Source: Nemertoderma westbladi
Taxonomy: Eukaryota; Animalia; Xenacoelomorpha
Direction: 5' to 3'
NCBI GenBank assembly: GCA_032718475.1
Contig: JAUCBJ010005652.1
Coordinates: 75,676-139,675 of the forward strand
Length of the DNA: 64,000 nt
The notes below the pieces were generated by a model that worked only from the letters and a program-made list of their open reading frames with translations, was not told the origin of the DNA and ran no database searches. The position numbers and the translations under genes are program-made. Below are positions 1-60,527 of the stretch, piece by piece; within the stretch, counting starts at the first letter, position 1; every line of letters begins with the position of its first letter.

Positions 1-3000
1 ATTTTCCGGTGTCTTCTCTCTGGACTGCTTTAGGAGCTGTAATTTTACCTCTCCATCTAAGAATGACATGAGATCAGCCATGGTAGGGTCTCTTCGTTGT
101 TGTTGCATCATATACAGAACTCTTTTGTCCCAACGAGTACCCACTCCACGCTTTGGCAAGGTAGATGCTACAGCTCCAATAACCATAGAACTCTGATACT
201 CATGAGACTTACCTAGCCAATCTAATTGTCTACAAATCTCCTGGATCTCATCGGAAAATTCTATAATCCCGCTGCTAATAAACTTTCGTGGCGCTACCAA
301 TTTCGCATACAAATACCTAGCTATGTTATTCCTATTACCATACCTGATGTTTAGTGTATCCCAAACTTGTCTTAATCCATCTGGATGTCCAATAAACTTT
401 AACGCCATTAACTTGGGAGATCCTTCCAAGCACTCGATGAGGAATCTAAGTTTCTCTCCGTTAGATAGCATAGAGTTCTGTATGTTATCTTTATAATATT
501 CATTAAAAGGCAACCATTTCATCTCATCTCCGTTGAACTTGACGATCTCTCCCACCTTTACCGCTTGGCGGGCTTCGGTTCTAGCCATTTGACGCGTAAA
601 ACTTTCTTGGGCCATCGTATTATTTAATATCGAGTTATCGGTATATAAATTTCTCGGATTAGGATCAGGTCTATAGGGAATATCATTATCAACAGGTTTA
701 TCGTTACCCTTAATAGGGTTTACTATAGGAGTTTCTACTTCACTAGCAGTATAGATGCGTGTAGGCTCCACACATTGCGCATGAAATACTTCAGACCTAA
801 CAGGTTGACACATTGTTACAGGGGGTGGTGGTATACCTCTTTGTATATTTACCAATTTATCGCGTTCTAACGCGATACTCTGCTGCACTTCTTGCAACTC
901 TAACCTACCCTCTCTGACTGTTCCCTTTAACTGTTGAACAGTCCCTTCCATCTCTCGGACCTGCTGAGAGGAACACAAACGGTGTTCCCTCAGCTGCCCG
1001 AGCAGGAGACCCATCTCCCGCCGTCCCTCATCCACCCACTCTACCGCCGAAGCGGGAGCCGCCAACATAGTAGCGGGTAGACAAGGGACGATGGGCGATA
1101 AATCGTTAATGTCTCGCTCGGCGTCCAGGACTGGAATTGACTCTGGAACAGTCCTACTGGGTACAGGTAGTTTAGTACTGTACAAAGGGAATTTAGAGTT
1201 AGGTTCTGGAAGTACAGGGGTCTCTATCACAGAAGGGGTGGCTTCGAGAACAGGCCTAATTATTTCAGGCTCATCTACTATAGTAGGGAGTCTTTCTACT
1301 CTAATAATTTGGTCTGTGGGTTCTGTACTACCTAAGTCTGCACTAGCTAGTTCGCCTTCTCACAGCTGGGGGCAAATTAGGCAATATCTGATGGTGAGGC
1401 GTTCTTCTACGTCTGCTGGAACGAGATCTATTTCCTCCGCCTTCAGGATCTGTTGTATCGCCTTCATCAGATGATGTAAATCCCTGTCTCTTGGGAGTAG
1501 ATCGACTTATCATCTGCATATACTTAGCTGTTCTTTGTTTATTGAAGTAATCTTGCTTCTCTTGAAGATTTTCCAACTCTAGTTGGACTGTCTCTTCAGA
1601 ACCCCTCCATTCTGCTGCTGCCACTGCCTCTGCCGCTTTTCTTTCTGCTTCTGCCGCTGCTACCTTTCTTTCAGCATCTGCCTCTGCCGCTGCCGCTTTT
1701 CTTTCGGCTTCTGCCGCTGCCTCTGCCACTGCCGCTGCCGCTGCCGCTTTTCTTTCAGCTTCTGCCGCTGCCGCTGCAGCTGCCGCCTTTCTTTGAACTT
1801 CTGCCGCTGCCACTGCTGCTACCTTTCTGTCTTCTATCCGTTTTTTCTTTAATTGTTCTTCCTGTTCCCTAGCGAGGAGGATGCTTTCATCAAATTTAGC
1901 TTGCTCTGTGACTAACATTTCCGCATCTAATGCGTCTAACACAAATTTGGCTCCTTCACTAGTAGGGTGAAGTCCAGCCAGACGTCTCCTCAACTCTTTG
2001 TCACCTATAAATCATTGATAGTCCGACAGATAGATGTCAATAGCGTCCTTCTTCTGAGGTTTCTCCAATGTCGCTTCGCTTTCCACTTGAGAAAAGGTAG
2101 CGTCTGTTGATTCTCCGTGGGTTGAGTGCTCAGTTAGCTGAATTTTCCATTGGGATGTTCCTTGAACTTTAAGGCTCACCCATTGGAACCAAGTCTTTAC
2201 GGCAACTTGCAACGACGTGTCTTGGCTTCTTTTCGAGGCTTCCTCAAAGGCCGATAGGATTAGTCTGATTCTTAGGATACGTACTCGAACTTGATAAAGC
2301 AGCTCTCCCTGCTCTTGAGGTCCTTGGGGTTGTTGAAACAGTTGTTCCTCTAATCGCTCCAAAGAGCTGAAGAATCCCTGTACATATCCGGCTGCTGACC
2401 TCTTCCACACAGCTGGATCTCTAGTGTCCTTTACCACTCCCATCCTGTATAAGTCCTCCCAGGCAGCTTCCGATAAGTTAAACGGGAGTCCGGGTCCGGG
2501 GAAGTTCCATTGCGTCTCGACAATAGACTTCAGTTCCTCCTTCGTGTATCCCGCATAACTGTCCTTGGTCGATCGCTTACTTCTCGCCCAATCAATTTGA
2601 TGTTCCTCCACCGCAATCAATACTCTAGTGAGTACGGCTTCAGGAAGAATGAGAAGTGGATCCGAATAAACTACATCTGCCATCTTTGCTCCGCGCTCGG
2701 GTGGCAACTCTACAGTATCTGAACTACTGGAGCTATCGGGCTGCTGAGAAATAAGTTCTCGGCTCGGGTGTTGCTGCTGTTTAACAGCTGCCTCTGTGCC
2801 GGCCTCCGTGCTTTGAGCCCGAGTGCCTATGATAGACCTACGGTGCTTTACTAGTCTAGGGTCTGATACTACTACTGAAGGGATGACTTTTCTTACAGTA
2901 GGAGGGGACTTGGACTTCGGTCTCAAATGTTCGGCACTCCTGTCGGAGTCGCAGACTGTTTTTTCTAGGAGACTATCTGACAGAGTTTGCTTTGTGTCAG

Positions 3001-3004
3001 CCAT
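1..3004 (-). pseudogene. Gag of copy A, with an in-frame stop at 2012-2014 and a frameshift near 1345-1350
   Basis: ORFs 2012..3004 and 1343..1993 are in frame across a TGA (DYQ*FIGD vs DYQRFLGD in B/C). Downstream DNA aligns to the DUF1759-like region (KFNGDEMKWLPF). Confidence 0.88.
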
Positions 3005-4897
3005 GTTTGATTGTACAGTTGAATGTCTACTACTATAACGACAGTTAAAGCAAGTATATTAATTCAGTATCAACTGTAAGCCTAGTAATTAATTACCGAT
3101 ATCGTTACTAAATGTAACGCGATATATATATAATATATTAGAATACTGGTATACACTTACAGTATATATATAAGTATTATTACAGACTAGGGTTTGTCAC
3201 AGAATACCGGTATATAATTTCAGCACAAATATATAAATATATAATAAGCCTACCGTGAATACCGGTATACAGCTTACACTTATAGTATATATAAGTATAA
3301 TTATAGACTAGAATTAATTACAGAATACCGGTATATAATTTTAGCATAAATTTATATAAATAAATATAATAAGCCTATAGTAAATACCAGTATGTCAATT
3401 ATTTTATGATAATTGAATTTCTGAGTTTTAGGGTTACTTTTCTTTACTTTGTTACTGTTATTTAAGCAGTAGTCCAACTGATATTAAGACCTAATTGATG
3501 GATAACAGGCCTACTATTTTATAAATCGGTTTGAGTTGATTTATAATATATATATACCCGTATAATGGGTTTTGACAATATTCGAAATAAATGTTATTAT
3601 TTCTGGTAAGGAGTCACTACACAGAAGCTGAACGCTCTCAGCGAAGTGCTACTTGTGGGACACTAAAACAAATAATTCTACTTGACTAAGTTACTTATTA
3701 CTACAAATTACGTACAATTATGGGGTGAGATTACAATCTCTAAATAAACACAAAAATTACACGTACAAATTTTAGGGTAATTTTACAGGAAATTTACAAA
3801 CCAGCCTAACAAGAGGTTATAATTTCTGGTTATTACAACGGACAGGATACTACGGTATTTGAAAATAATTAAGCAGTAGTAAATAAATTGCGTTGTCCAG
3901 ATAAGAAAATACCACCGTCTGACGACTTATAGTCTTTAGCTGTACAGCTCTATAAGTACTACGTTATGTACCCGGAGTGTTCCTACCTAGAAGTTAATTA
4001 CCACAGCCAACCAGAGCTAATGTGCCTATTAACCACTTTACAACACAAATATACCGCCTACTCACTAATTACCTTCGGAAAGTATTGTACACTAAACCCT
4101 AAATTAGGTACAAGTACTTATACAACAAATAACCAGTAGTTAAAAATACTTGTACAGCTAAAAGAACCACGGTATCTGCTGGAGTGACTAGAGCATAAAA
4201 TCACCAGTCTTTACCTACGCCAAGCAGCCCTGATGTAGTACCGGGGTTAATTTAACTATAACGGTATGTATAACAAGCACAATTACTGTAGGAATTAACT
4301 TGGGGAGTTATGTATGTTGCGAATACTCGCATAGACTCTGAATAATAAATAAATACGCTACCCGTGCAGACTACACAAACAAAATACAGACCAAATGCTG
4401 GCAGACTACTATCAAGCCCAAATAAACTACAGTATATGCAGACTCCGAAATGGTTAGTTAGTATGCGTTCTAACCGAGTAGTACGACTTATTCTTTCGGG
4501 GGGGATTTACCTTACCGCACTGGATGCCCCTACCTTCCTAACTAGTACTTTATCGGACATACACTCTACACACACTGCAATCTCTTCAGACTTAACAACA
4601 ACCAAACAACAATCCAGCCTACAAATTATTTATACAATCTGAGCAGGCTTACACGCCTTCTGCTCAATATTACACTTACAAATAAATAAAACTGACAGAA
4701 ATAAGTAAAATCCCAATAAAAAACCAGGGCGGCCGTCCCTGATTAAATATCAAGACCTACCGGTATATAATTATAAAAATCGAATAATACTGCTGTACCT
4801 GTAAGTACCGGTTCGGGCAGTTGGGTAGTTAGGCCTACAGCTTACCGTTCGACCGGTACCTTCGACTTTATTGCCTACGGTGCAATAAAGAATCTGA

Positions 4898-4908
4898 AAA
4901 TCTATTAT
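4898..4908 (-). promoter_or_regulatory. Non-tRNA primer-binding site of copy A (sense ATAATAGATTT), complementary to LTR 5698-5708
   Basis: Abuts the LTR end, lacks TGG, and has a perfect 11-nt inverted match inside its own LTR. Confidence 0.75.
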
Positions 4909-6120
4909 TGTTCGCGCTTTCAGACCTTTAGCAGTTTAACCTGCCAATTTTAGGTGTCCTCTTTTTTATAAATCGACTTTAGCCTATAACAATTATTTAA
5001 TGCACATGAAGTAACATTAGCCGAAGCCAGTCTATGCGCGATCATTCACCCACAGTTAAGGGAGACTGGATTCGGATGCTTTGACCTTATTGCGTTGCAG
5101 ACCTACTGTATTATTCGATTGATTGTTACTATATAATCACTGACAATATTATTCACTTTCAGGGAAATATTAACAGTTCCTTTAGGACGTGGCGCTTTAA
5201 GTATAAAACAGAGTTATGACTTATACTAAACACAACGAGATGGCTAATGATTTTCATAAATAGCGCATTCTTTAGGAGATGCTTTATTATCTGTCACACT
5301 GCTGCATACGATTTCACACTGCTGCACACTGATCTGCCGACCATCACTGAATTTGATCATATATAAGGAGGATAGCCACTGACACATGTAGGGATTATGA
5401 AATAGCATTTACTGCACACTAAAACCAATGTAATGTAAGTCGCAGTTGCTACCGGTAACCGGTCCCTCTAACCTTTAGTAAGCAAGAAGATTGGGGTTTT
5501 ATGATTATTTATCGATATTCTCCAAATATAACAAGATATCCATCAACATATAACCATTAATAACAGACAGTAAACAGAAGTACAATAATGCGGTGATATT
5601 CAGCCAGTATCGGTAATACCGGTACCGCAGTTGCAGGTGCAGTATCAAAGTTGTTCAGTCAGTGCAGACTGCAATTTCATCAGTCAGGTGATCGGAGATA
5701 ATAGATTTACGTTCTTGTAATCAAAGCCGTCTAATGTTGGCCAAAGTCTGAAACTTCTAACACAGAAGTACAGAAGAATCCTAAGCCGGTGTTCTGGGCT
5801 TAGAAAAGATACACACTGACTGAATTGCGTGGGTTTCTGTAGGCACTGTCCAACACAAAGTGAAAATCGCTCTGATTGGCCGAGCAGAACAAAGAACAAA
5901 GAAAAGCTCCACGCTGGCAGTAAATCAGCTGACAGATGTCGTCATCTGAACTACCCTCTATTTAGAGTATTTGGCGTATTGCGGCATAAAATGGCTTGTT
6001 ATGTCCGCTAAAACACCTACAGGGTACATTGCGGAGAAAATGGCTTGTTATGTCCGCTAAAACAACTAAACAGTTCATTGCGGAGAAAAATTACTGGTTA
6101 TATCCGCAAAAGCTTTTACA
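4909..6120 (-). repeat. 5' LTR of copy A (1212 bp, TG..CA)
   Basis: Termini and internal blocks (GCGCGATCATTCACCC; GGGAAATATTAACAGTTCCTTTAGGACGTGGCGCT; CGCTCTGATTGG) are shared with the B and C LTRs. Confidence 0.92.
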
Positions 6121-6770
6121 ATAACTTTCGGAAGCGGTTCTTCATACGGAAGGGGGAATCGTTTATGAGATTGCGATCGTGAGCGAAATATCCCGTTAAA
6201 GTGAATATATATGGAGCTATTAGCTGGAAAGGGAAATCGCCACTAATGATACTACCAGGTAAAGCCCGAATAAACTCGTCAATGTATTGCGATATGGTGC
6301 ATAAAGGAATTATTCCCTTTTTGAAGTCAACATTTCCCGAAAATGACTACGTGTTACAGGCAGACTCGGCTCCTTGCCATAAAAGTAAAGAAACAATGGC
6401 ATTCCTCGATAAAAACAATGTAAACTATTCACCGGGGTGGTGGCCTCCTGAATCACCAGATTTAAATGCCATTGAGTGCGTTTGGCATGAATTGAAGGAA
6501 CATTTTTACGCAATAAAGCGCAACCACGTAATAAAGAAGAACTGATTTCTGGAATAACAGATTTCTGGCAAAACATTATCACTGTTGAGAAATGTCGCAA
6601 TTACATTTGCCATAATCTAAATGTCATACCAATGGTTCAAACAAACAACGGTGGTCCAACTCTCAGTTAATTTATGTTTAATTGTAATTACTGTATAATA
6701 TTATTTCATTACATACTGGCATTACTCGCCTCCATTCGAGCTCGAGGTCAATTATTTGGAGACAATTGTA
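6121..6770 (+). mobile_element. Tc1/mariner transposase 3' fragment, interrupted by LTR copy A
   Basis: ORF 6201..6545 has VYGAISW-like, LQADSAPCH and WPPESPDLNAIECVWHELK motifs of Tc1-family DDE transposases. Probable right end ...GAGACAATTG|TA at ~6768. Confidence 0.88.
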
Positions 6771-7530
6771 TACAAAACTATGTATAATCAAAATTTAATC
6801 TAAATTATACCTTCAGCTTCACATGGGGGAATGTGAATGACGCATCATGGCCGAGATAGGATTTGCGTCAAGATTCCCCTCTTCTCGCATACTGCGTAAT
6901 TGTAAGGTTTTACTGTGTTGAATTGAGTATATTTGATGAATGCCCCATTGCAATATTTCTAGTTAAAGAGTTAATTGTATTTTATTTATTTATCAAGCAC
7001 GTTAAGTAAAAACCTTACCGGTAGGTATGTCAGTGCCAAAGTATGTATTAAACTAAAAAGCAACAAGACCTAGACGTTGCATGGAATCTGTGATCAGCTG
7101 ACGGCAGCCAGCTGATCGGTAGGTTTCGCCCCGCAACTGAAGGCATTCTCAGGAGGCCAAGCCAGGAAATGTAGAGAGAGATTCCCAAAGGGGGACGGAA
7201 CAGGTAACGAAATGAAGATATGTCGTCTGTACTGTAACTAACCACTGGAAAGCAGCACCGTAAACTTGCGCCAGTCACGTCTCTGCTTGTTGTTAACCTG
7301 CTTGTTCTGCTTGTTTTGATGAATGTCCCATTGCAACCAATTGTTTTGGACAGGCGTCCACTGTAGTACCCACGATGACAAATAGTGTTGGACAGGCGTC
7401 CACTGTAGTACCCACAACGACAAATAGTGTTGGACAGGCGTCCACTGTGGTACCAACGATGACAAATAGTGTTCGACAGGCGTCCACTGTGGTACCCACG
7501 ATGACAAATAGTGTTGGACAGGCGTCCACT

Positions 7531-8941
7531 CCCTATAAGCATCAACACGTCAAAAACACGTGGATACGACGTAATTATTTGACGTCAACGTGTTGAAAAT
7601 GACGTCTTGGCCACGTGTATTTTGGAAGTGTCAAACACGTGTTTGAGCACGTCAAACCATGACGTGTTACAGTTTACGTCAAATGACTTGTTAGACACGT
7701 GTCAATTACGTCATCAGACGTCAAATACTACACTGGAACACCACACAAGCACGTCAAATGACGTGCTAGACACGTACTGTAACAATAACAGACGCCAAAT
7801 TCAAATAACTACACCACACAAGCACTTACGCGTCGCTTTTTACATCGCTTAGATCCATGACATTATGATTGAAATTGACGGTGTTTGTTGATACTATAAT
7901 AAAGAAAAAACATTATTATATAATGTAACCAATAATAAACCAAATATAATATAAATAAATATCTAAATATAATAAACCTAATGGGTCAATTTGGCCATTT
8001 TCTTGTCATTGGTGGTGCGCAATAGCACCACTCACACCCACCATAGTACCTTCCTACCCACTCACTCCCACTATAATACCTTCCTACCCACTCACACCCA
8101 CTTCATTACCTTCCTACCCACTCACACCCACCTCATTACTTTCCTACACACTCACACCCACCTCATTACTTTCCTACACACTCACACCCATCATATTACC
8201 TTCCTACCCACTCACACCCACTATATTACCTTCCCACCCACACACACCCACCATATTACCTTGATACCCACTCACACCCATTTCATTACCTTCCTACCCA
8301 CTCACACCCACCTCATTACCATCCTACCCACTCACACCCACCTCATTACTTTCCTACACACTCACACCCACCTCATTACCATCCTACCCACTCACACCCA
8401 CCATATTACCTTCCTACCCACTCACACCCACCATATTACCTTCATACCCACTCATACCCACTTCATTACCTCCCTACCCACTCACACCCACCATATTACC
8501 TTCCTATCCTACCCACACGCACCCACCTCATTACTTTCCTACCCACTCACACCCACCACCAATATAAATAACTAACTAAAATATACCCACCACTAATATA
8601 AATATACTGTACTCATACTGTAGTCAGTGAGTAGGTAAAAGTGGTAAGTAGATGTGTCATTAAGACGTGTTCAAGACGTAATTTTAGGTAATTATTTCCA
8701 ACATGAAAAGTATCACACAGATACGTGCCATCAAGACGTGTTCATGACGTCATTTTAGGTAATTATATCCACCATGTATAAGTCTCATACAGGAACGTGT
8801 CAACAAGACGTGTTCAAGACGTAATTTTACGTAATTACGTCAACCATCAAAACTTTGAGTTCTTGCAACAAACATAATTGACGTAAAATGACGTCCACAT
8901 ACCTGTTGAGGTGTAAAAATAGACGTCAAATGCTTATAGGG
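7531..8941. mobile_element. Non-autonomous CACTA/EnSpm-like DNA transposon (CCC...GGG ends, 2-bp TSD CT)
   Basis: TIR CCCTATAAGCAT / ATGCTTATAGGG. CT is duplicated in the interrupted 42-bp unit. Dense subterminal GACGT/ACACGT motifs lie at both ends. Confidence 0.85.
8028..8560. repeat. 30-bp minisatellite (CACTCACACCCACCTCATTACCTTCCTACC), about 17 units, inside the CACTA-like element
   Basis: Direct tandem periodicity of 30 bp. Confidence 0.92.
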
Positions 8942-9503
8942 CTGTGGTACCCACGATGACAAATAGTGTTGGACAGGCGTCCACTGTGGTAGCCACGATG
9001 ACAAATAGTGTTGGACAGGCGTCCACTGTAGTACACATGATGACAAATAGTGTTGGACAGGCGTCCACTGTAGTACCGACGATGACAAATAGTGTTGGAC
9101 AGGCGTCCACTGTAGTACCCACGATGACAAATACTGTTGGACAGGCGTACAATCCTGTACACCTTATGAATAAACCGGATGCCACAACGAATAAAATCGA
9201 AACAAAATCGAAACATAAACCAAAACCAACCAAGTAAACAAAACAAACCCAGTCTTGCTCGGGACAGGGAAATATAAACGTTGTACCAGGTGAGTAACCT
9301 AAAATTCCATACCCCCCCCCCCCCCCCATCATTAAAAAGAAATATGGGTGTACTTTCACTGAAAGTTATCTAGGCATACAGTACTGTATAATGTATAATA
9401 TCCTGACAAGCCAAAAATAGTAGGCCTATAATAGATAATAATAATATATTTATAATACTGTATTATATATATTTATGTTCATATTGCAGTAGCCGATAAT
9501 GTT

Positions 9504-10346
9504 GTGTTTCCTCCTACACCAACACGTCAACGTTTACTATTAGACGGTGGTATATCTGAACATGATTCAATTAACCGAATTCGTGGTGACGCGTTTCATG
9601 ACTTCAATACCATTGAAGTCCAGTCAGCGACTACTGGTACTTCCCGAGAAAACATTGCTCAATATGGATCAACAGCAAGGCTAAGGATGCCACAACCACC
9701 ACTGGATAACCGATATTTTTCATCAGGATACGCAGTAGTTTCAGCAGGCGATATGTGGATATCTGCATTAAAAGCATTTACGGAAACAATGCAGACGACA
9801 AATTCGTTAATGGTAGAAATCCGAAGTTTATTAGTGAGAAATGGAAATGCGAACTTATTGTCTGCAGTCGTTACGCCTACACCTGCACAAACCGCGACTG
9901 TTCCAAATTCCTCTAACCATCTACACTCTGTCTCCGGGAGCGAATACAACACATCGAAATCGTTTGACATTCTTCAAAGTAGAAAACAATTCCAGCACTA
10001 CCCTGAGCTACAATTGATAGAACTTGAAAAATATGGCATCTCTCGATCTCAATTATCTAACATATGTTCTAATCCGGATTTTGATTCACGTAGCAAACTA
10101 TATTTTAAACTCTTGCAGATGGTTGTATCACCTGAGGAATTGTCATCAAACGCAACGATCAGTACATCCAAAGATAATTCCAAAAATGTTATTGACCAAA
10201 TGAAGGTTAACTGGGCCAAGAAGGAATTGTTTGAGTTGATTAGTGGAATCGAAAATATGCGCCAGGTATGGAGAATGGTCAGAAATTGTGTAAACACCAC
10301 TCTGGCCTCTCTATACAAAAATTGTCAACAAAAGAAGGACTTATAA
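9504..10346 (+). CDS. Probable last exon of a BEN-domain protein
   Basis: C-terminus (YFKLLQMVVSPEELSS...VIDQMKVNWAKKELF...VWRMVRNCVN) fits the BEN-domain pattern and follows a short coiled-coil. No ATG start; acceptor-like ATATTGCAG at ~9489 and donor-like CAG|GTGAGT at ~9289. Confidence 0.6.
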   Translation: MFPPTPTRQRLLLDGGISEHDSINRIRGDAFHDFNTIEVQSATTGTSRENIAQYGSTARLRMPQPPLDNRYFSSGYAVVSAGDMWISALKAFTETMQTTNSLMVEIRSLLVRNGNANLLSAVVTPTPAQTATVPNSSNHLHSVSGSEYNTSKSFDILQSRKQFQHYPELQLIELEKYGISRSQLSNICSNPDFDSRSKLYFKLLQMVVSPEELSSNATISTSKDNSKNVIDQMKVNWAKKELFELISGIENMRQVWRMVRNCVNTTLASLYKNCQQKKDL

Positions 10347-11221
10347 TTACTGTAATATATTGTTACAATATTAATTCAGGATAATGTATTCTGTTACCCT
10401 TTATTTGAACTATTTATTTCATGTGCTCGTTTGTTATATTCAAATTAATATAATGTACAGTAGAAGTTATAGGCTTAATCATAATATCTTGAAGAAAAAT
10501 AAAACCCTCCATGTTAACTCTATATAAATTTTCCCTGGAATAATAATTTCTTGTTTTCAATATAAATTGGCTGAAACGTGCTCGTTTGTGTGCATCCTTC
10601 GTGCCAGAAATAATTAACCAACCCGAATATATAAAAAAAGGTTCATGGGGAGTATACCACCCCCCCCCCCCCCCCCCCCCCCCTTAAGCTAGTTTAGCCC
10701 TTAAGCTTTAATTTAAACATTAAGGGAAAGTAACAGGTTGCGGTGGCTGTGGCATAGTTTTCTAACCAAAACAATAAACGATACTTTATTTCACTTGTGA
10801 TCAATTTGCGGTGAAGATCACTATTTTCACTTGCATAGTCAATGTACGCCATTATCTGGTATCATAATATTGTAACATAAAATAATGTTAGGCAGTTCTG
10901 TGCTCTGAGTTCTTGTGTGTCACATGAAACGAAGCCCCGCCTTAAACATTCTTGCCAAGATCTGACAAGAATCCTCAATTACAGTACTAACAAGAATTAA
11001 CAAAAGTCTCAAATCACACCAAGACAAGCCAAGCCAATATCTCTCAATAACCTCCGAAACCCGCGAAGTCTTGGTGACTCTTGGCCACTCCAGACAAAGC
11101 CCACCAATAATTACCAAGAGCTCAATCAATTCAAACCGCAACTATTGGAGATTCTTGAGAAGAGTTGGCCAATAATTGTGCCAAGTTGTTAAAATGATAT
11201 GGAATTTGTAAAAAGTACTGT

Positions 11222-13925
11222 ACATACGCGTATGTGCCGTATGTAATGGATTCCTATGGAGAATAATCCGTATGTGATTTTAGAGATTAGGCATTGCGGA
11301 CCAGTAAGAAGTGCACATCACACATGCAGACTGAAGACAGGTAGGCCTACTTAAAGCTAAGTGATTTAAAGCGTGTATCTACCGCTACCTTTTGTCAAAT
11401 AAACAATGCAGGACAGGTCCATGGATGAGTGACAGCCGGTGTCCGCCAGCCCCGGGATGCGCCAGCAGTGCAGTACCTATTAACCATAACTCTTCTTGAC
11501 GCCGCTTGGAAATCTAACCAACCGTGATTTATTTTTGAACTGTTTTTCCACCAACCTGGCTATAGAATGTTGTTGGTTGCTACAGTATATATGGCACTAA
11601 CATAGTATAACATAGCATAGACTGATAGAAGCAGCAATGAGAATGCTAAGGGAATAAACATTCGCACGCACATATTGAAAACCATCGTGCCAGTCTGTCC
11701 TTCTTTGTGAATTTATTAACATATAATATACCTTTACTTTCGCTGTTTCGGGGCCAGTATTTAGTTAACCATAGCAGGCCCTATGCAGCCAAGTGCCAAC
11801 AAGACAAACCTACTGTAGTGTCAGTTAGTCAAACCACGGTCAGCGAGTGCAACCGGGTGTCAGTAATTAATCTAAGTCCAACCGGGCGTCCCGTGTCAGT
11901 GACGCGTCCCGTGACAATAAAACAAGCGCTGTGGCGCATCCCGGGGCTGAAGGACATCATCTGTCACTCATCCCGGACCTAAAATGTTTATTTGCCATTA
12001 GGTAGCGGCAGCCGCAGTACATACAGGATAAAACTGAAGCAATTACAACTGCTCACATACAGCAACAATCAAGACTTACCTGGCAAACTGTAAATGAGGT
12101 ATCTGGTCGGATAAGTTGTGCAAAGGGGCGCCTCAAAGCCGATAGTCCTGAAGAACGTGTTGGGAAGTGGAAAAATCACTTCAGCAACTTGCTTGGGCAG
12201 CCACCAAACATCGAGGTCAGCCCTACAAGGAAAATATATGACAAGACACTACCTATACATAGAAACAGGGGACTTCACACCTGCCGAACTCCAAAGAAGC
12301 ATTAAAAGCATGTCCAATAATAAAGCGAGTGGATTAGATGAAATCCCAGCGGAGGTATGGAAAACCGGAGTGCTAAATAGACCATTATTGAATGTTTGCA
12401 ACCGGATGTTAAAAGGGGAAAAGCCACCACCAATTTGGACTAAAGGTAAACTAAAACCTCTCCCCAAGAAAGGAGACCTCGGCATACCAACAAACTATCG
12501 TGGGATCTGTCTGCTTGTGGTAGCTGCCAAAATATACAATAAAATGATTCTATATAGGATTAGGCCTCACATAGAGAAACTACTGCGTAAGAGCCAAAAC
12601 GGATTTCGACCAAGTAGATCAACAATAGCTCAGATACTTGCACTACGGAGACTGATTGAAGGAATAAAGTCAAAGAATCTCCCCGCAGTCATGACTTTTG
12701 TGGACTTCAAGAAGGCATTCCACTCCATCCATAGAGGTAAAATGCTTGAAATCCTAAGAGCTTATGAAATACCAGAAGTAATTGTTGCTGGCATTGGATT
12801 GCTATATTGTGACACAGAAGCGCAGGTACTCTCACCAGATGGTGAAACTGAGTTTTTCTCAATCCTAGCTGGCGTACTGCAAGGTGACACATTAGCACCA
12901 TTACTATTTGTAGTAATTGTGCTGGATTACGCAATGAGGACGGCCACAAAGGGTGAAGATCTGGGATTCACACTTCAAGAACGCAGAAGTAGTAGATATC
13001 CGGCAACTACAGTCACAGACACCGACTTTGCGGATGACATCGCCCTGCTCTCTAACCTGACGCTAGCAGATGCACAGCTTCTACTAAATAAAGTGGAGAG
13101 GGCTGCTAAGGAGGTTGGATTGCATATAAATGCTACCAAGACCGAATTCATGACCTTTAATGTTGATGGAAACTTGACAACCATTGATAATAATCAACTA
13201 AGGAAGGTCGATGACTTCCAGTACCTTGGATCATGGATAGAGAGTAGCAAAAAGGACATAGAAGTTAGGAAAGCAAAGGCTTGGGTAGCTCTATCAAAAA
13301 TGGATACCATCTGGAAATCAGATCTTTCGAGCCACAGTGGAAAGTGTATTTTTATACGGGGGTGAGACCTGGACACTGACTAAATCACTTGAACAACGAA
13401 TTGATGGTTGCTACACAAGACTACTAAGGGCAGCCCTAAACATCTGCTGGAGACAACACATGACAAACGCCGAGCTTTATGGTACAATACCACCTGTATC
13501 AACCACCCTCCGTGAACGCAGATTAAGATTCAGTGGGCACTGCTGGCGAAGTAAAGACGAGGTCATACCAGATCTACTTCTCTGGCAACCAACTCATGGA
13601 AAGCGCAGTCGTGGACGACCTGCCATAACATATATAGATTAACTTGAAAGGGATACTGAACTTGGGAGAAACGAAATTGCGACAACTATGGAGAATCGGG
13701 AAGCCTGGAAGGATCTCATTTCCACTGTCCGAGTTCGCTCGACTTAGTAGTAGTAGTAGTAGCGGCAGCCGCACTCTTTAAATCATATCGCTTTTAAGTA
13801 GGCCTACCTGTCTTCAGTCTGCATGTGTGTTGTGCACTTCTTACTGGTTCGCAATGCCTAATCTTTAAAATCACATACGGATTATTCTCCATAGGAATCC
13901 ATTACATACGCACATACGCGTATGT
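11222..13925. mobile_element. Foldback/MITE-like element with ~250-bp inverted arms; right arm interrupted by an RTE LINE
   Basis: 11222-11355 is the reverse complement of ~13793-13925. Similarity continues from 11355-11470 to 11925-12016. Both ends carry the palindrome ACATACGCGTATGT. Confidence 0.8.
12017..13758 (+). mobile_element. 5'-truncated RTE-clade-like LINE (RT and C-terminus, frameshifted) with (TAG)n tail and 15-bp TSD
   Basis: RT motifs KASGLDEIP, NYRGICLL, QNGFRP, FVDFKKAF, GVLQGDTLAP, FADDIAL, YLGS. C-terminus LYGGETWTL...GKRSRGRP. TSD GTAGCGGCAGCCGCA at 12002-12016 and 13759-13773. Confidence 0.93.
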
Positions 13926-13983
13926 GCATACGGATACGGCAAATGCATACGGATACGGATATAGATACGGCGAAAAGTTATAC

Positions 13984-15055: not shown

Positions 15056-15554
15056 GCTGTAACCTAAATTAATCCAGCGATTAGACCTCGACATTATTAG
15101 TATCCAAACACCATTTAGACCTCGAACGAAAGTTTAGATTCAGAAAATAGTAAAGAAAAAAAGTCGAAAAGTAAGTAAATAATGTGTAGGCGTATATGAA
15201 TGAATACAATATAAATCCAGAATTCCTAAGTAAAATAGCACAATAGGTTGCAATCGTATTATATATTAAATGTGTTTTTAAATTAATTAAATAATTACTA
15301 AATTATTAAATTGAAACATTTAGAAAGTTTAGATTGTTAAAATATTTAGAGCGTAAGTATCAAACAACCGTAATATTTCGATGAAAGTGAAAGGGGGTGT
15401 AGGTGTGGGTGTGATTGCAGAGCAGGGTTGAGTTGAAGGTTTGAAATACCCTTTTAAGACATTGTTCGCCAAGGCCAACTATTATCTCAATACAAAAAAT
15501 ATAGAGGTCCAAAGTCAATCTAACGCCCAATTACAAATAAAAATAAACAGTGAC

Positions 15555-18130
15555 AGTACCACAGCGCCTCAACGTTGTTACCTAACTGCCCCACCAGCAG
15601 TACCACAGTGCCACTAGAGGTTACCTAACTGTCCAGCCAGCAGTACCACAGTGCCACTAGAGGTTACCTAACTGCCCCACCAGCAGTACCACAGTGCCAC
15701 TAGTGGTTACCTAACTGTCCCACCAGCAGTACCACAGTGCCACTAGAGGTTACCTAACTGTCCAGCCAGCAGTACCACAGTGCCACTAGTGGTTACCTAA
15801 CTGTCCCACCAGCAGAACCACAGTGGCACTATTGGTTACCTAACTGCCCCACCAGCAGTACCACAGTGCCACTAGTGGTTACATAACTGTCCCACCAGCA
15901 GTACCACAGTGCCACTAGAGGTTACCTAACTGTCCAGCCAGCAGTACCACAGTGCCTCTAGTGGTTACCTAACTGCCCCACCAGCAGTACCACAGTGCCA
16001 CTAGTGGTTACCTAACTGTCCAGCCAGGAGTACCACAGTGCCTCTAGTTGTTACCTAACTGCCCCACCAGCAGTCACAGTGCCTCTAGTGAGTGGTTACC
16101 TAACTGTCCAGCCAGCAGTACCACAGTGCCACTAGTGGTTACCTAACTGTCCCACCAGCAGTACCACAGTGCCACTAGTGGTTACCTAACTGTCCAGCCA
16201 GCAGTACCACAGTGCCACTAGTGGTTACATAACTGTCCCACCAGCAGTACCACAGTGCCACTAGAGGTTACCTAACTGTCCAGCCAGCAGTACCACAGTG
16301 CCACTAGTGGTTACATAACTGCCCCACCAGCAGTACCACAGTGCCTCTAGTGGTTACCTAACTGCCCCACCAGCAGTACCACAGTGCCTCTAGTGGTTAC
16401 CTAACTGCCCCACCAGCAGTACCACAGTGCCTCTAGTTGTTACCTAACTGCCCCACCAGCAGTCACAGTGCCACTAGTGGTTACATAACTGCCCCACCAG
16501 CAGTACCACAGTGCCACTAGTGGTTACCTAACTGTCCAGCCAGCAGTACCACAGTGCCACTAGTGGTTACATAACTGCCCCACCAGCAGTACCACAGTGC
16601 CTCTAGTGGTTACCTAACTGCCCCACCAGCAGTCACAGTGCCTCTAGTGGTTACCTAACTGTCCAGCCAGCAGTACCACAGTGCCACTAGTGGTTACCTA
16701 ACTGTCCCACCAGCAGAACCACAGTGGCACTATTGGTTACCTAACTGCCCCACCAGCAGTACCACAGTGCCACTAGTGGTTACATAACTGTCCCACCAGC
16801 AGTACCACAGTGCCACTAGAGGTTACCTAACTGTCCAGCCAGCAATACCACAGTGCCTCAAATGGTTACCTAACTGTCCCACCAGCAGTACCACAGTGCC
16901 ACTAGTGGTTACCTAACTGTCCAGCCAGCAGTACCACAGTGCCACTAGTGGTTACATAACTGCCCCACCAGCAGTACCACAGTGCCTCTAGTGGTTACCT
17001 AACTGCCCCACCAGCAGTCACAGTGCCTCTAGTGGTTACCTAACTGTCCAGCCAGCAGTACCACAGTGCCACTAGTGGTTACCTAACTGTCCCACCAGCA
17101 GAACCACAGTGGCACTATTGGTTACCTAACTGCCCCACCAGCAGTACCACAGTGCCACTAGTGGTTACATAACTGTCCCACCAGCAGTACCACAGTGCCA
17201 CTAGAGGTTACCTAACTGTCCAGCCAGCAGTACCACAGTGCCTCAAATGGTTACCTAACTGTCCCACCAGCAGTACCACAGTGCCACTAGTAGTGGTTAC
17301 CTAACTGTCCAGCCAGCAGTACCACAGTGCCACTAGTGGTTACATAACTGTCCCACCAGCAGTACCACTGTGCCACTAGTGGTTACCTAACTGTCCCACC
17401 AGCAGAACCACAGTGGCACTATTGGTTACCTAACTGCCCCACCAGCAGTACCACATTCCCACTAGTGGATACCTAACTGTCCAGCCATCAGTACCACAGT
17501 GCCACTAGTGGTTACATAACTGCCCCACCAGCAGTACCACAGTGCCTCTAGTGGTTACCTAACTGCCCCACCAGCAGTCACAGTGCCTCTAGTGGTTACC
17601 TAACTGTCCAGCCAGCAGTACCACAGTGCCACTAGTGGTTACCTAACTGTCCCACCAGCAGAACCACAGTGGCACTATTGGTTACCTAACTGCCCCACCA
17701 GCAGTACCACAGTGCCACTAGTGGTTACATAACTGTCCCACCAGCAATACCACAGTGCCACTAGTGGTTACATAACTGTCCCACCAGCAGTACCACAGTG
17801 CCACTAGAGGTTACCTAACTGTCCAGCCAGCAGTACCACAGTGCCTCTAGTGGTTTCCTAACTGCCCCACCAGCAGTACCACAGTGCCACTATTGGTTAC
17901 CTAACTGTCCAGCCAGCAGTACCACAGTGCCACTAGTGGTTACATAACTGCCCCACCAGCAGTACCACAGTGCCACTAGTGGTTACATAACTGTCCCACC
18001 AGCAGTACCACAGTGCCTCTAGTGGTTACCTAACTGTCCAGCCAGCAGTACCACAGTGCCACTAGTGGTTCCCTAACTGCCCCACCAGCAGTGCCACAGT
18101 GCCACTAGTGGTTCCCTAACTGCCCCGCCA
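15555..18130. repeat. 43-bp satellite (GTTACCTAACTGCCCCACCAGCAGTACCACAGTGCCACTAGTG), about 60 units, overlapping the HEXD-like stop codon
   Basis: Direct tandem periodicity; recurring variant units suggest higher-order structure. Confidence 0.95.
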
Positions 18131-19835
18131 CTGCAATTGCGTCGTTTTTATTAAGATTCGAAAGTTCTTTCTGCCTTATAGACTCGCATTGTTCGAGAAT
18201 GGCCTGTAGTTGCTTGGCAACTGGTTCTACGTAAGATTCAATCAATTCATCGATGTGATAAACCGGCATAAAGTCGACTAGAGCCGATCGGGTTAGAGTC
18301 TCTGTAGCAGAGAGCAACTCGACGAAATGTTTAGCTTTACGTTGTAGGTCGTCAACACGAAGCAGATTGATTTGGTTGCGTTTGAGTTTGGCGGGATTCA
18401 GCCAGCCAGCCACGTATTGGCCGTGGACGAAGTCCTTAGAGCGGTGCAGATAGCGGTTCAGATCAACTACAATCTGGTAGATATTGGCGCCCGGGAAATC
18501 GCCGACGCCGGAAGATCCGTCGTCCAGTTCCATGGATTCTAGACGGAGCGGGTTGAGGAAACCCAGCGATCTGGAGACCTCCTCGTGGAGTTGGTTGGTA
18601 AAGCAACCGGTGTCCAGAGCTCGGAGACATACAACCAGCGAGGGGACAGACACCGGTAGCAACTCGCACTGGATCGCGAAGTGGTCGTAGCGAGACCAGC
18701 CGGTGAGCGCGACTCCGCGGAAATCGATCGAGTGCGGAAGCTCGTTGACGACGTTCAACCAGAGGACCTGCGGGACGACTTGGTTGAGAATAGGAGTGGT
18801 TAGTTTGTCGCTGTTTGTGGACCCTTTGAAGCAACTGGCGCCCCAGACGCGAGGGAACACAGCCGCGTAGTTGGCCCACATGTTGGGCGGGTAGAGTTGC
18901 TTGTGGTTGTACCAGCGGTAGTTCCAGACCATCGGCTCGACCAGGCGACCCAGATCGAGTTGTTTCATTGCGTCAACAGAGGCCGTGCGAATCATATCGT
19001 CCCAGATTATCGGTGTGACGCGTTTCTCGCGAACGTATTTGGCTACGGTTACGACGTGGTTGAGAAAGAACAGCGTTTTATCGCCGTGGAATGTTTCACG
19101 TAGAACTCGCTGTGTCAGCTCGTTCTCCGCAATGTTATAAACTTCGTCGCAGCCGATGTGAAGGTATTTAACAGCGGGATGCATCGCAAGGATTTGATCT
19201 ATTATAGTTTCTATGAGTCTCTGAGATTCGTCCAAACTTGGGTTTATTACCATCGAGTACAACGGCACTTCCCTAAGATGCGCGAATTTACCGTGTTTCA
19301 GAACGAATTCCATGTGACCGTAAGTCTGGATCAACGGAATAACATCCAGGTTGTGAGCGGCGGAGAGTTCTAGTATCTCTGCGATATCGGCGCTCTGGTA
19401 GGCGTGTTTAGCTGATAAGACGGAAAGTTCTCCGGAATACGGAAAAGTATCTTCGTACTCTATCAGTAAACCGGTTGCTCCCCATTGGGATAAGTAAGGA
19501 ATTATCTTCCTGAGATAAGAAATACTAGGGGGAGATCCTTTTAAGTCTAGATGTACGAGTTTATGTTTATCTTTCATTAAATCGGGTTTGGATTCGCATT
19601 TAATGTCAACGTCCATCTTACAGTTTGTGTCTCCGTACTTTACGAACCGCCCTCTGTTGGAGTCCGGACTGGTGGACGCGACTGACGTGCTGTGGGAGAT
19701 CGACTTACTAAGATTATTGTGTGGGAAGGTCAACTTCTCATTAGCGATCGATGTGTACCCGAAATAACTTACTGAAGAAAACACAATGATAGCCCCCAAT
19801 AGTTTGAGATAAAACTGCAACCCTCTTCTCCTCAT
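18105..19835 (-). CDS. HEXD: Hexosaminidase D-like glycoside hydrolase (GH20) with an N-terminal signal-anchor; single coding exon
   Basis: Motifs LVHLDLKG, GATGLLIEYEDTFPY, IPLIQTYGHMEFVLK, catalytic HIGCDEV, WDDMIR, WGASCFKG, LTGWSRYDHFA..CELLP. Hydrophobic segment LLGAIIVFSSVSYFGY. Confidence 0.92.
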   Translation of the reverse strand: MRRRGLQFYLKLLGAIIVFSSVSYFGYTSIANEKLTFPHNNLSKSISHSTSVASTSPDSNRGRFVKYGDTNCKMDVDIKCESKPDLMKDKHKLVHLDLKGSPPSISYLRKIIPYLSQWGATGLLIEYEDTFPYSGELSVLSAKHAYQSADIAEILELSAAHNLDVIPLIQTYGHMEFVLKHGKFAHLREVPLYSMVINPSLDESQRLIETIIDQILAMHPAVKYLHIGCDEVYNIAENELTQRVLRETFHGDKTLFFLNHVVTVAKYVREKRVTPIIWDDMIRTASVDAMKQLDLGRLVEPMVWNYRWYNHKQLYPPNMWANYAAVFPRVWGASCFKGSTNSDKLTTPILNQVVPQVLWLNVVNELPHSIDFRGVALTGWSRYDHFAIQCELLPVSVPSLVVCLRALDTGCFTNQLHEEVSRSLGFLNPLRLESMELDDGSSGVGDFPGANIYQIVVDLNRYLHRSKDFVHGQYVAGWLNPAKLKRNQINLLRVDDLQRKAKHFVELLSATETLTRSALVDFMPVYHIDELIESYVEPVAKQLQAILEQCESIRQKELSNLNKNDAIAVAGQLGNH

Positions 19836-20174
19836 AACAAATATAAATTGTTGAAATAGGTAGGGGGTTAAAGGGCTACGGCTAAACTAGACCTACTATA
19901 CTTTGTTGATTACTAGTGGAACTGATTGATAAAAACTGGCGTTAGCGGTACGTACATCGGTCGCTATGGCACAACAATGTGTACAGTATACCTGTATACA
20001 GGTATAGGCTTACCTGTATTCAGATGGAAAGTGAAATAATAACTTTCGGTATGGTATGGAGCGAGCACGAGATATGGTATATCAATATCAGTATTCAGGT
20101 TAGCAATTGCAAAACTCTTCCTATAGTAGTAGTAGTCCAGGAGTCTACTAAAACATAATAATTATGATACTGTG

Positions 20175-21563: not shown

Positions 21564-22190
21564 TTTTGTTTGTGTTGGACAATTAATACATACATTGTTT
21601 TGGTGTATATTTGTTATTGTTGTATATAAAAAAAATAGGCGGGAAATTCAAAAGGTTAGATCCAGTGAAGGAGTGAACTGGAATGGTATTGTGAATTTTC
21701 AGAATACGGGACGGGTACCCTACGCCCTCCTCATGTCTGCATGTACCTACTACTGCTTCCTTACTAACTGTGTAACTGTAGTGTCTGCCGGTCTGACTGT
21801 ACTACAGTATGCAGTACCGGTACTGCAGTGCAGTTAGGTTGTAATGTTGTAGTAAACTGTACAACCTGTTGCTTGTAGCTGTAGTCCTGTAGACACTTAG
21901 TCAGTTAGACAATAGGAGGTCTACACCTACATCCAGACAGCTACACCACCCAGCCACCACGCCTACGCCTATCAGCCTACAGGTTCTAGCCAGACAGCTA
22001 GATGCTAGAAGCCAGCTAGCAGTGCAGTAGCCGTGAATACTGAAATAGTCGAGCCCGTGGTCCGCCGATAGTAGTAGTCGAGTAGTCCGTCGATAGTAGT
22101 AGTGATCATACTGTCCTACAAAGTACAGTAGGCCTACCGGCTACCCTTTTTAAACTTTGCTATAAACATACTGACAGACTGACCAATAAA

Positions 22191-22934
22191 ATGTTATGTT
22201 TTAATATATTTAGATTGCGGGTTGTTGGCAATAACTCCAAACAAAGCTTTAATTTTAAACAAAAAGTCGTTTATAATTCAACTCAGGGACAGAGATTTTC
22301 CTTTGAAAATCGCTCACTATTTGTTTACATGAACCCGCATACCTGTTATGGTAGTTTATATAAAGCGTTTAAAATCGGCGGAGTCTATTCAATAACAAAA
22401 AGGAACTTTGCGAATACTGATGATGATGTGGAGGAAAACATTGCCGACAATGATGACGAAGAAGATGACCTGGAAGTAGATGATGTGGGGCCGGTAATCG
22501 AAAAGGATCCGCGGTTCGCTGGTATTCCTTCCTACGATAAAATCAATGTGAGGCTTCAGGGTCATGACTTCCCTGTATTGGAAAACTATTGTCGATTTAT
22601 TGAGCGGCAAGTTCCCAAACGTTTACCTGGTATATATATAGAGGAAATATTTCCTCTTCCAACTAAATTATTGGCAATGAGTTACTTACCAATAGGCGGG
22701 GTAAAAATGGAGAACGTTAATTTGAAGTTGCACGAACGGGTTGTAACTGTGGTCGATCTTCCCACAATAATTGGCCCCATTTTAATAGAGTTTCTCCAAT
22801 GCAATCTCCCTGAAGGTGTTTCCATGCTAATCGAACATTATAATGATTCCTTGTCGGAGCAACGCTATAAGAGTGAAGATGAATTAATTAGAGAGATATC
22901 AATGATTGCTGATACTGAAAAGTTTTTCAAATGA
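22191..22934 (+). CDS. MRPL48: Mitochondrial ribosomal protein mL48; single coding exon
   Basis: INVRLQGHDFPVLENY...EEIFPLPTK...LKLHERVVTV...IEFLQCNLPEGV matches the S10-like domain of MRPL48. The basic N-terminus resembles a mitochondrial presequence. Confidence 0.85.
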   Translation: MLCFNIFRLRVVGNNSKQSFNFKQKVVYNSTQGQRFSFENRSLFVYMNPHTCYGSLYKAFKIGGVYSITKRNFANTDDDVEENIADNDDEEDDLEVDDVGPVIEKDPRFAGIPSYDKINVRLQGHDFPVLENYCRFIERQVPKRLPGIYIEEIFPLPTKLLAMSYLPIGGVKMENVNLKLHERVVTVVDLPTIIGPILIEFLQCNLPEGVSMLIEHYNDSLSEQRYKSEDELIREISMIADTEKFFK

Positions 22935-25845: not shown

Positions 25846-26905
25846 ATACAGGTGTACATAACATCCCTCATGTTTGAAAAACTTCGACCTCCCTTTTAAG
25901 GTTCTCCAGCTTTTAAAGTACTGTAGGATTAAGTTTATAATGGAGTCTCCGAGACTCCGACTATAAAAGTGTGAGTATCCTCAATTGCTATCAGTAGTGG
26001 CTTCCCAAGCGAAGGGTTTAGTAGACTTACTGTTGCTTACTGAAGGCGTTTACACTCGTGGATTACAGATTTGGAATAATGGTTACTAATATTCTATTCT
26101 CATTGACTCCCTGCTGCCCTGTTAAGGGGGGGGGGGGGGGGGGGGGGTCTCTGGAGGTCGTGGGTTCAATCCCCGCATGGCACGAATTCTACGAATGCGT
26201 TTCGGCACGAATGCTTTGAAGGGACCAGCCAGGGCGCATCGGACTCTGCCTTGCCTCCTTAAGTGGTAGCTAAATGAGTACTGGAGTTTCTTCTGGGGAG
26301 CATAGTTCTGGGGGGACCGCACTTGAATTAAATCGTTTACCTGTCGATTGTGCGTTATCATTGGTTTAACGGCCGAAGAAAACTTACTTTTTTTAGGCAT
26401 ATTGCATTAGGCTGGCTGTTAGGAAGTCAGACCAGATACAATCCATCAATTACTACATCAATTTATATTAATTTACTAATAAATCAATTAGCCTATATTC
26501 ATGTAATAATAATCAATTATAATTTATAATTGATCATTATTAAAATGGATTACTGGGGTGTCGTTATAATGCAGTGGTGTCGATCACCCATAGTGGTGGC
26601 CATGGCGGTGGATGAACAGGCACTCATTGGCTTAAAGAGTTAAAGACCCTAATCGATTATCTCAATCAATTAAATTAATTTTGCTGCAGTTCTTAGATTC
26701 TAGTTCAGACTTGTTTGTACATTGTAGTGATTGCACGGTGACGGTACATGTAGTACGCTGTACTGTAACTAAATATGATGTAGTACTGTACAGTCAGAAG
26801 ACAGTGTAGCTTAGCTACTGAGCTAATTCAGTCAATTTTACTGGATATACCCTACTCAGCTACTGCCGTACAGCTGTACGTACAGCCCTGCAGCCGTATA
26901 TCATA

Positions 26906-32705: not shown

Positions 32706-33941
32706 TGTTCGCGCTTTTGAAGACCTTTAGCAGTTTAACCTGCCAAAATTTATATGTCTTTTAGTTAATTAACACACCTTTAGCATACGACAATATTTTA
32801 TGCTAATAAACAAAACATTAGCCGAAGCCAGCCCATGCGCGATCATTCACCCGATGGATCTACACCCGGGAGGCTGAATTCGGATGCTTAGATTTTATTA
32901 TTGCAGTGTAAGGTTGCAGTGTAAGCCTACTGTATTATTCGATAGATCACTAATAATTAATTTCTGACAGATATTATTAACTTTCGGGAAATATTAACAG
33001 TTCCTTTAGGACGTGGCGCTCTATCTATTTAAACAGAGCTAGGACTTATACTAAACGCAACGATAAGGCTTATGATTAAAGTATAAGTCGCATTCTTTAG
33101 GAAATGCTTTGTTACCAGTCACATCACACTCACAATCATGCACACTATTCTGCCGACCGTCAGTACATTTGATCACACATGAAGAGAACAGCAATTGACT
33201 CAGGTAGTGTCCACTAAATAACATTAGATTCAATACACACCACATTGATATAAATCGCAATTGTTATATATAGCCCGCCTCTCTAACCTGTAGTGTATCA
33301 AGAAAATTGGGAATTTGGGTGATTTATCCGTATTATCCAAAGAGCAATATTTCCATCAACAAATAGGTACAATTAATAACTGACGGTAAATAGCAGTACA
33401 AACAATATGATTAGTGCAGTTAAATTAAGTGAGGTAACACCGCCGCCGGTAACAGTTATACTTTCTATAATCTAAGCAGTTTACTAGAGTTCTTACCAAA
33501 AAGCCGGTGTTTCTGGCTTGGACAGCAATAACAACAAAGTATCAAGTAAAAACAGTAAGACTGAACACTCTCCTTATGATCGGCTGAAAAGCTACACGTC
33601 GACAGGAAAAATCGCTCTGATTGGCTCAAGCCAAACAAAGAACTATGCGTCCAATGGCTGTTTCCATGTCAGCAACCAGCTGTTAGATGTCGTAATATGA
33701 ATCATCACGGCTAAGCTGTGAAAGGTAGTTGGTGCATTACAGGTTTTTTGCTTTACCATGTCCGCCAAAACACGTATATAGCAGAATGATTTTTATGTCC
33801 GTTAAAACACCTGTAACGGTACCTTGCGGGCGAGGGGAATATATATACAGTTAGAGAACCTTTTTAGAGTATTCCAGCGCCTGGGGGGAAACTGGATTGC
33901 GAAGCAAAAGGGGCCAGTTATATCCCACAGAAGCTTTTACA
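32706..33941 (-). repeat. 3' LTR of copy B
   Basis: TG..CA, 1236 bp, matches 43377-44612. Preceded on the sense strand by a short purine-rich TGGGAGCGG (33942-33950), also present in copy C. Confidence 0.97.
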
Positions 33942-34019
33942 CCGCTCCCAGAAAATGGGATTTAAGTCTATAAAATATACAAAATCACAGTTTCTCAAAT
34001 ACGAAAATACTCTAAACAG

Positions 34020-43364: not shown

Positions 43365-43376
43365 TATAACTGTTAC
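43365..43376 (-). promoter_or_regulatory. Non-tRNA primer-binding site of copy B (sense GTAACAGTTATA), complementary to LTR 44120-44131 (33449-33460 in the 3' LTR)
   Basis: Perfect 12-nt inverted match ending exactly at the LTR edge. Confidence 0.78.
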
Positions 43377-50934: not shown

Positions 50935-51012
50935 CCGCTCCCAGAAAATGGGATTTTCAGTCTATAAAATATAAAAATCACAGTTTCTAAAACATAAAGA
51001 TACTCTAAACAG

Positions 51013-60515: not shown

Positions 60516-60527
60516 TATATCCGTTAT
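60516..60527 (-). promoter_or_regulatory. Non-tRNA primer-binding site of copy C (sense ATAACGGATATA), complementary to LTR 50482-50493
   Basis: Perfect 12-nt inverted match ending at the LTR edge; seen via the intact 3' LTR. Confidence 0.78.

Follow-up and report, generated by a model that had tools for sequence, protein, structure and literature searches.

Three related elements on the minus strand

The window, by which we mean the whole stretch of 64,000 nt of DNA that was analysed, contains three related elements, A, B and C, all on the minus strand. Copy A runs off the window start, with its 3' LTR and left TSD lying beyond it; copy B is complete, and copy C retains only part of its 5' LTR. 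Their features, together with the pairing sites discussed below, are as follows.

1-3058, minus strand: copy A gag region, in three stop-free pieces (2012-3058, 1343-2011 and 1-1359), with DUF1759 in the last piece (1-1359)
4866-4890, minus strand: copy A, predicted 9-bp hairpin just downstream of the PBS
4898-4908, minus strand: copy A PBS, 11 nt, directly abutting the LTR, no TGG
4909-6120, minus strand: copy A 5' LTR, 1212 bp, TG...CA, terminal CA at 4909-4910
4928-4947, minus strand: copy A, predicted U5 hairpin ~20 nt before the LTR end
5698-5708, minus strand: copy A, predicted self-primer, pairs perfectly with the PBS
5698, minus strand: copy A, predicted cleavage point after this 3' base of the primer, by analogy with Tf1
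5819-5823, minus strand: copy A, TCAGT initiator-like motif, candidate transcription start (putative function)
5875-5879, minus strand: copy A CCAAT box, in a block of 12 nt that does not vary between the three copies
6121-6125, no strand: ATAAC flanking copy A, an expected 5-bp TSD only, its partner being outside the window
32706-33941, minus strand: copy B 3' LTR, purine tract before it at 33942-33949
36910-41142, minus strand: copy B open frame, 1410 aa, coding for a Gag with DUF1759 and three zinc knuckles, for an aspartic protease and for a short RNase H tail
43365-43376, minus strand: copy B PBS, 12 nt
43377-44612, minus strand: copy B 5' LTR, same as its 3' LTR; TSD CAGCC
44120-44131, minus strand: copy B, predicted self-primer, 3' LTR counterpart at 33449-33460
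49731-50934, minus strand: copy C 3' LTR, 1204 bp
50482-50493, minus strand: copy C, predicted self-primer, taken from the 3' LTR
54146-58183, minus strand: copy C open frame, 1345 aa, domain set as in B
60516-60527, minus strand: copy C PBS, 12 nt
60528-60878, minus strand: copy C 5' LTR, truncated at 60878; the remaining 351 bp match the end of the 3' LTR exactly

The end of the copy A LTR was set by the equivalent end in B and C, where it is marked independently by the 3' LTRs of these copies. Copy B shows 0 differences between its LTRs over 1,235 compared bases and is flanked by a TSD, and the 351-bp LTR overlap of copy C is identical; elements with these PBSs thus moved recently. The predicted hairpins on both sides of the LTR end are shared among the copies: the U5 hairpin is kept in B and C (in C with one G-U to G-C change), and the hairpin behind the PBS is also found in B (8 bp, each arm minus one base) and in C (with a different loop). 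A stem between U5 and the leader is predicted in A, weakly in C, and not in B. Stem-loops were reportedly described around the Tf1 PBS by Lin and Levin in 1998.

The protein content places the copies in BEL/Pao. DUF1759 was detected at E ~1e-11 in A, B and C, and B and C each carry one long frame in which DUF1759 and the three Cys/His zinc knuckles of Gag are followed by an aspartic protease motif and a short RNase H tail. Among related proteins, all 5 matches of one search carry DUF1759 and PF05380, and the relatives that were scanned have Pao-specific Pfam families. RT and integrase are absent, as tblastn of 58 relatives longer than 1,600 aa (of 157 proteins) matched only Gag, protease and the RNase H tail. 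The DUF1759 Gag, the Pao-specific relatives and the missing RT and integrase are the sequence grounds on which we assign A, B and C to BEL/Pao as non-autonomous, deleted derivatives. TG...CA LTRs, a purine tract and a TSD (CAGCC in B) are all present, as in Belpaoviridae; the Belpaoviridae Pol order of protease, RT, RNase H and integrase is reduced to protease and the RNase H tail, and an 18-nt tRNA-type PBS is missing from A, B and C, with no TGG at the PBS start. A Ty3/gypsy Gag-Pol with a chromodomain integrase was not found, both Pfam domains and homologues being those of BEL/Pao, and a kinship with the Tf1 group, which an earlier note on this DNA might imply by its comparison with the Tf1 primer length, is not supported.

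In the frames of B and C, which are 84% identical over aligned columns, no stop interrupts the passage from the protease to the RNase H tail, where the RT is missing; from these stop-free frames, Gag-protease seems to be kept under selection in a non-autonomous family. Between the open frame and the 3' LTR, B (33942-36900) and C (50935-54100) share a stretch of ~3 kb that is 84-90% alike in parts and gave no BEL/Pao protein match and no long ORF. At 4904-5260, the summed contig depth reached nearly 1 million in run X1 (7,481 contigs), a depth that is no copy number and that suggests a very large family in the host animal.

The rest of the window holds host-like genes, further RT frames and repeats. 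A glycoside hydrolase 20 (18105-19886), a ribosomal S10 domain (22086-22934) and an LSG1 GTPase (26822-29347) are encoded in single stop-free frames of 593, 282 and 841 codons, respectively. The LSG1 frame is of animal type with no close match (39-55% identity among the 120 matches listed), and a search with the mitochondrial S10 frame gave no match. These single-frame host-like genes suggest that the host is an intron-poor animal of a poorly sampled lineage. An inverted repeat of 118-170 nt (11219-13928) flanks a 416-aa RT frame (12115-13365), a second RT frame lies at 46443-47450, and tandem arrays occupy 7968-8627 (30-nt units), 15443-18130 (43-nt units) and 62586-64000 (21-nt units).

Pairing between the PBS and the LTR

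In copy A, AAATCTATTAT at 4898-4908 has its perfect complement, ATAATAGATTT, at 5698-5708 in the LTR, which confirms, at these very positions, the 11-nt pairing abutting the LTR that the earlier note had reported. The same arrangement is found in all three copies: the bases right after the terminal CA are a perfect complement of one site in the copy's own LTR, over 11 nt in A and 12 nt in both B and C, and in none of them does the PBS start with TGG. When each LTR was dinucleotide-shuffled 10,000 times, an 11-nt complement at offset 0 appeared 16, 9 and 13 times for A, B and C, respectively (a chance of ~0.001 per copy), and a complement at any offset of 0-5 arose 54, 61 and 23 times. Among the 4,898 internal 11-mers of A, 5 are complementary to a stretch of its LTR, the PBS itself being one of them, and across copies the number is 5-8 of 4,900-9,600.

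The pairing persists with different bases. The LTRs of A, B and C are 78-82% identical, and the 11-mers differ at 4 (A/B), 3 (A/C) and 3 (B/C) positions, with each difference matched on the other side. Accordingly, own pairs have 0 mismatches and swapped pairs 3-4 mismatches of 11; the duplex energies are -8.0, -11.7 and -12.0 kcal/mol for own pairs, compared to 0.1 to -5.0 kcal/mol for swapped ones. This bears out the earlier statement that the pairing outlived the divergence of the LTRs. The co-variation comes from only three window copies of common ancestry, with the C site taken from its 3' LTR, and the "independent" showing that had been claimed for copy A is true of its substitutions, which are its own, but not of its descent, which it shares with B and C.

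As to whether the three LTR sites are positionally homologous, a check that the earlier note had called for, a MAFFT alignment brings the A site and the C site into register and puts the B site ~60 columns off, in a poorly aligned part. The distance from the CCAAT box to the site end is 181, 175 and 163 nt in A, B and C, that from the site end to the LTR end 789, 743 and 751 nt, and the flanking context agrees in all three. Homology is thus borne out by alignment for A and C, and for B it rests on distance and context, since MAFFT does not align this site with the other two. All three LTR sites end in TTAY followed by C, and a T-A stands at -1/+1 of the 11-mer in every copy; in copy A, the conserved T preceding the 11-mer faces a mismatch.

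Split complements in autonomous BEL/Pao relatives

Relatives were collected with an alignment of 24 long BEL/Pao proteins, which gave the best 80 of at least 567 loci in metagenome contigs; the 46 of these that have some sequence upstream of gag were analysed. The alignment found no relative in viral contigs, and a 20-nt LTR pattern of the window family had 0 matches in metagenome contigs. In many relatives, the PBS likewise opens with GT or AT, at 0-6 nt from the LTR end. Its complement lies in two parts, one of 4-8 nt behind a YAG acceptor and the other of 4-9 nt in front of a GTAAGT-type donor (which we take to be the splice donor consensus) some 100-430 nt upstream. The complement thereby grows from 4-9 nt in unspliced DNA to 10-16 nt across the splice junction in 18 loci of 13 families. 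When the GT that best extends the match was chosen among 17-88 candidates, it belonged to a donor agreeing with GTAAGT at 6/6 positions in 9 loci and at 5/6 in 9, with ties in 3, and PBS/primer matches between families did not exceed 7 nt in 538 pairings. With the window copies included, 24/24 PBSs begin with GT or AT, the primer end ...AY is conserved in 24/24 rows, and 11 nt is the commonest duplex length. The acceptor lies 35-226 nt from the PBS in the relatives.

A split-primer rule, fixed only after the data had been seen, was passed by 17/46 loci, by 0/46 on the opposite strand, and by a mean of 0.27 in 15 shuffled sets; locus L013, whose LTR end is not ACA, fails it. A looser blind search returned 52 hits, of which 14 lie immediately behind CA and many are due to chance or contig-end artefacts, and a contiguous-match rule was weak in the relatives (7/46, versus 2.9 in shuffled sequences and 5 on the opposite strand). 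No PBS call was obtained for 22/46 loci (L008, L076 and L071 are among those without a clear PBS), several of the contigs lacking the junction. The LTR end was fixed independently by a 3' LTR in L014, L052, L077 and L080.

Some of these loci carry the complement joined in DNA. In L052, the 3' LTR has the junction as a contiguous 11-mer and the 5' piece has the acceptor, which looks like a precise loss of the intron in the 3' LTR via spliced RNA, in contigs of a kind that may merge copies; its relative L058 has a donor at the matching place, with the split checkable on one side only. Contiguous matches also occur in L028 and L037. The sister locus of L028, L024, has a split primer (2428-2438), and L028 has a contiguous match of 11 nt (122-132 and 273-283) with the same seven 3' bases, an apparent second intron loss. 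A TGG-type PBS, five bases after the LTR, was found in only two loci, L032 (53-80) and L033 (15-42), which serve as a conventional control. In an unrooted integrase tree of 43 loci (3 were left out for lack of a stop-free segment), self-complementary loci extend over most of the tree, on one side of a branch versus the two TGG loci.

The window family itself is only distantly related to these loci. Its Gag-protease is ~22-27% identical to the proteins of its closest relatives, and no autonomous helper of the family was found among the proteins compared. A Gag-protease tree, which left out 5 near-duplicate loci and loci without a 1,450-aa stop-free segment, puts the window pair on a long branch beside the two TGG loci (93/81) and not inside the split-primer group, a position flagged as a possible long-branch artefact. 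For a possible descent from the split-primer group, the arguments are traits held in common: the start of the PBS, the lack of a spacer, the length of the duplex and the end of the primer. When a split primer was sought in the window LTRs, the best split match was 6 nt in A, 6 in B and 8 in C, compared to 11-12 nt for the contiguous one. The same priming layout is found in autonomous BEL/Pao, mostly with a primer split by a putative GT-AG intron in the LTR, and in an intron-free form in the window family. That a large BEL/Pao branch builds its primer by host splicing of an LTR intron, with the window family as an intron-lost descendant that arose via spliced RNA (compare L052 and L028) and was freed from the splicing checkpoint, is for us close to an even call, falling slightly on the doubtful side. 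If true, only the spliced 5' end would pair with the PBS in that branch.

Probable self-priming, its alternatives and known systems

From the sequence evidence above, A, B and C very likely prime reverse transcription with their own RNA, via the 11-12 nt site in the LTR. The PBS is of non-TGG type and pairs perfectly from the first base after the LTR. A transcript from the 5' LTR would fold back over a loop of 740-790 nt, presumably helped by the zinc knuckles of Gag and framed by the U5 and post-PBS hairpins. By analogy with Tf1, RNase H would then cut after the last base of the primer (...AY, then C), leaving a 3' OH for minus-strand synthesis. Because the copies encode only Gag and protease, RT and integrase would act in trans from a helper element, whose RT-RNase H would do the cutting. 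Selection may maintain the perfect co-variation, as may a copying of the primer into the PBS at every cycle, or the two may act together. The pairing is well supported by this co-variation and would belong to a broader system of priming without tRNA in BEL/Pao.

The transcript of the window family probably starts ~100-125 nt upstream of the site end. The TCAGT motif, which we take to be an initiator, lies 125, 115 and 116 nt upstream of the site end in A, B and C, downstream of what we likewise take to be a CCAAT box. A start exactly at the first base of the primer was considered as a general rule and rejected: most relatives would then have first exons of 4-7 nt, and in L052 and L014 TATA boxes are found 130-140 nt ahead of the splice junction. 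Given the TCAGT positions and these TATA boxes, the primer RNA may reach ~100 nt or more and pair through its 3' end only. The likeness to the Tf1 primer length that the earlier note drew therefore likely stands for the duplex only, since the promoter-like motifs point ~100-125 nt upstream.

Right after the predicted primer end, at 5618-5697, the similarity within the family falls; the LTR alignment is also poorest there. In run X1, the summed contig depth was 675 at 5618-5668 versus 20,688 at 5669-5719, and contig cover on a short stretch begins at 5693-5699 in all 4 runs. This drop, which short-stretch mapping may exaggerate, may mark the first strand-transfer point.

In a variant of self-priming that we consider rather unlikely, the primer would be supplied in trans or as a small RNA, from another transcript copy or the 3' R region. 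Two observations speak for it. The loop is long, 743-789 nt versus the 35-226 nt between acceptor and PBS in the relatives, and the fold-back is not the predicted minimum. When the whole stretch from site to PBS was folded, the duplex reached a pair probability of 0.14-0.43 in A and of 0.0 in B, and with 150 nt of extra upstream LTR it was 0.0 in both copies, a result that also speaks against the self-priming reading itself. Against the variant, a perfect match to the own copy in three diverged copies is simplest to explain in cis.

It is improbable that the pairing is instead a structural or regulatory long-range contact (for packaging, dimer formation or leader shielding) and that the primer is a host RNA such as a tRNA fragment. 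BEL/Pao elements are described as tRNA-primed (PMC8742986), priming by half-tRNAs is known in Copia lineages according to excerpts of PMC6317226, the predicted primers of several relatives are rich in palindromes, and the window has 0 tRNA genes. A fixed host primer would, however, hold the PBS constant, and the PBS differs at 3-4 of 11 positions among the copies, and across 13 families, in step with the LTR; the pair also begins within 0-6 nt of the LTR end, the place at which priming has to start. Finally, a chance inverted repeat or a functionless inherited one-off duplication is highly improbable: AT-rich 11-mers do find complements by chance, as counted above, and the B site escapes the MAFFT alignment, but wherever the copies differ, PBS and LTR site have changed together, which largely refutes this explanation, and the layout recurs in 13 other families.

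Self-priming from the own LTR, as we propose for the window copies, has precedents. In Tf1, an LTR-derived RNA of ~11 nt that is complementary to the PBS primes after RNase H cleavage, as given in excerpts of PMC7175516; passages of the same paper and of PMC4600332 describe self-priming in Tf1 and Tj1, and passages of PMC6317226 extend it to the Tf1/sushi group and, by prediction, to Tcn1 and the TAR lineage. For TAR and Tcn1, the criterion used in those passages was a 5' LTR complement of at least 10 nt to sequence 0-5 nt after the LTR. Belpaoviridae, in their ICTV profile, are tRNA-primed, with an 18-nt PBS for tRNA-Arg or tRNA-Gly (PMC8742986). No report of self-priming or splice-junction priming in BEL/Pao was found in the literature searched, which lay outside subscription journals, Repbase, GyDB, the full ICTV report and supplements; the accessible portions of PMC3601003, PMC6934838 and PMC8220671 hold nothing on BEL/Pao self-priming, and priming is not discussed in the text of PMC3118150, PMC554778, PMC6238403 and PMC12440569 that term look-ups covered.

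If true, our reading would extend self-priming to a third LTR superfamily, one that ICTV describes as tRNA-primed, and would account for the many BEL/Pao elements that PBS finders overlook. Control by tRNA fragments would presumably not reach a tRNA-free primer, and the split form would couple the onset of reverse transcription to splicing by the host, a connection absent from the literature searched.

Like Belpaoviridae, the window family has a DUF1759 Gag with three zinc knuckles, an aspartic protease, an RNase H tail motif, TG...CA LTRs of 1.2 kb, a 5-bp TSD and an animal host; unlike them, its copies lack the 18-nt tRNA PBS, RT and integrase. As in Tf1/Tf2, Tj1 and Tf1/sushi, there is no tRNA PBS, a complement of ~11 nt to the own LTR, and stem-loops by the PBS, which in the window copies are predicted. 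In contrast to Tf1, the window copies are BEL/Pao elements and not Ty3/gypsy chromoviruses, are non-autonomous and have a longer loop; their transcript probably starts ~100-125 nt upstream, whereas the Tf1 primer is the first 11 nt of the RNA, and their BEL/Pao relatives would need splicing to make a primer. Like TAR (Houba and Osr-1, of Ty1/copia) and Tcn1, as far as the excerpts of PMC6317226 describe them, the window copies show a complement of at least 10 nt within 0-5 nt of the LTR; those elements are plant or fungal Copia or Gypsy, with no split primer described in the same excerpts, whereas the window copies belong to BEL/Pao.
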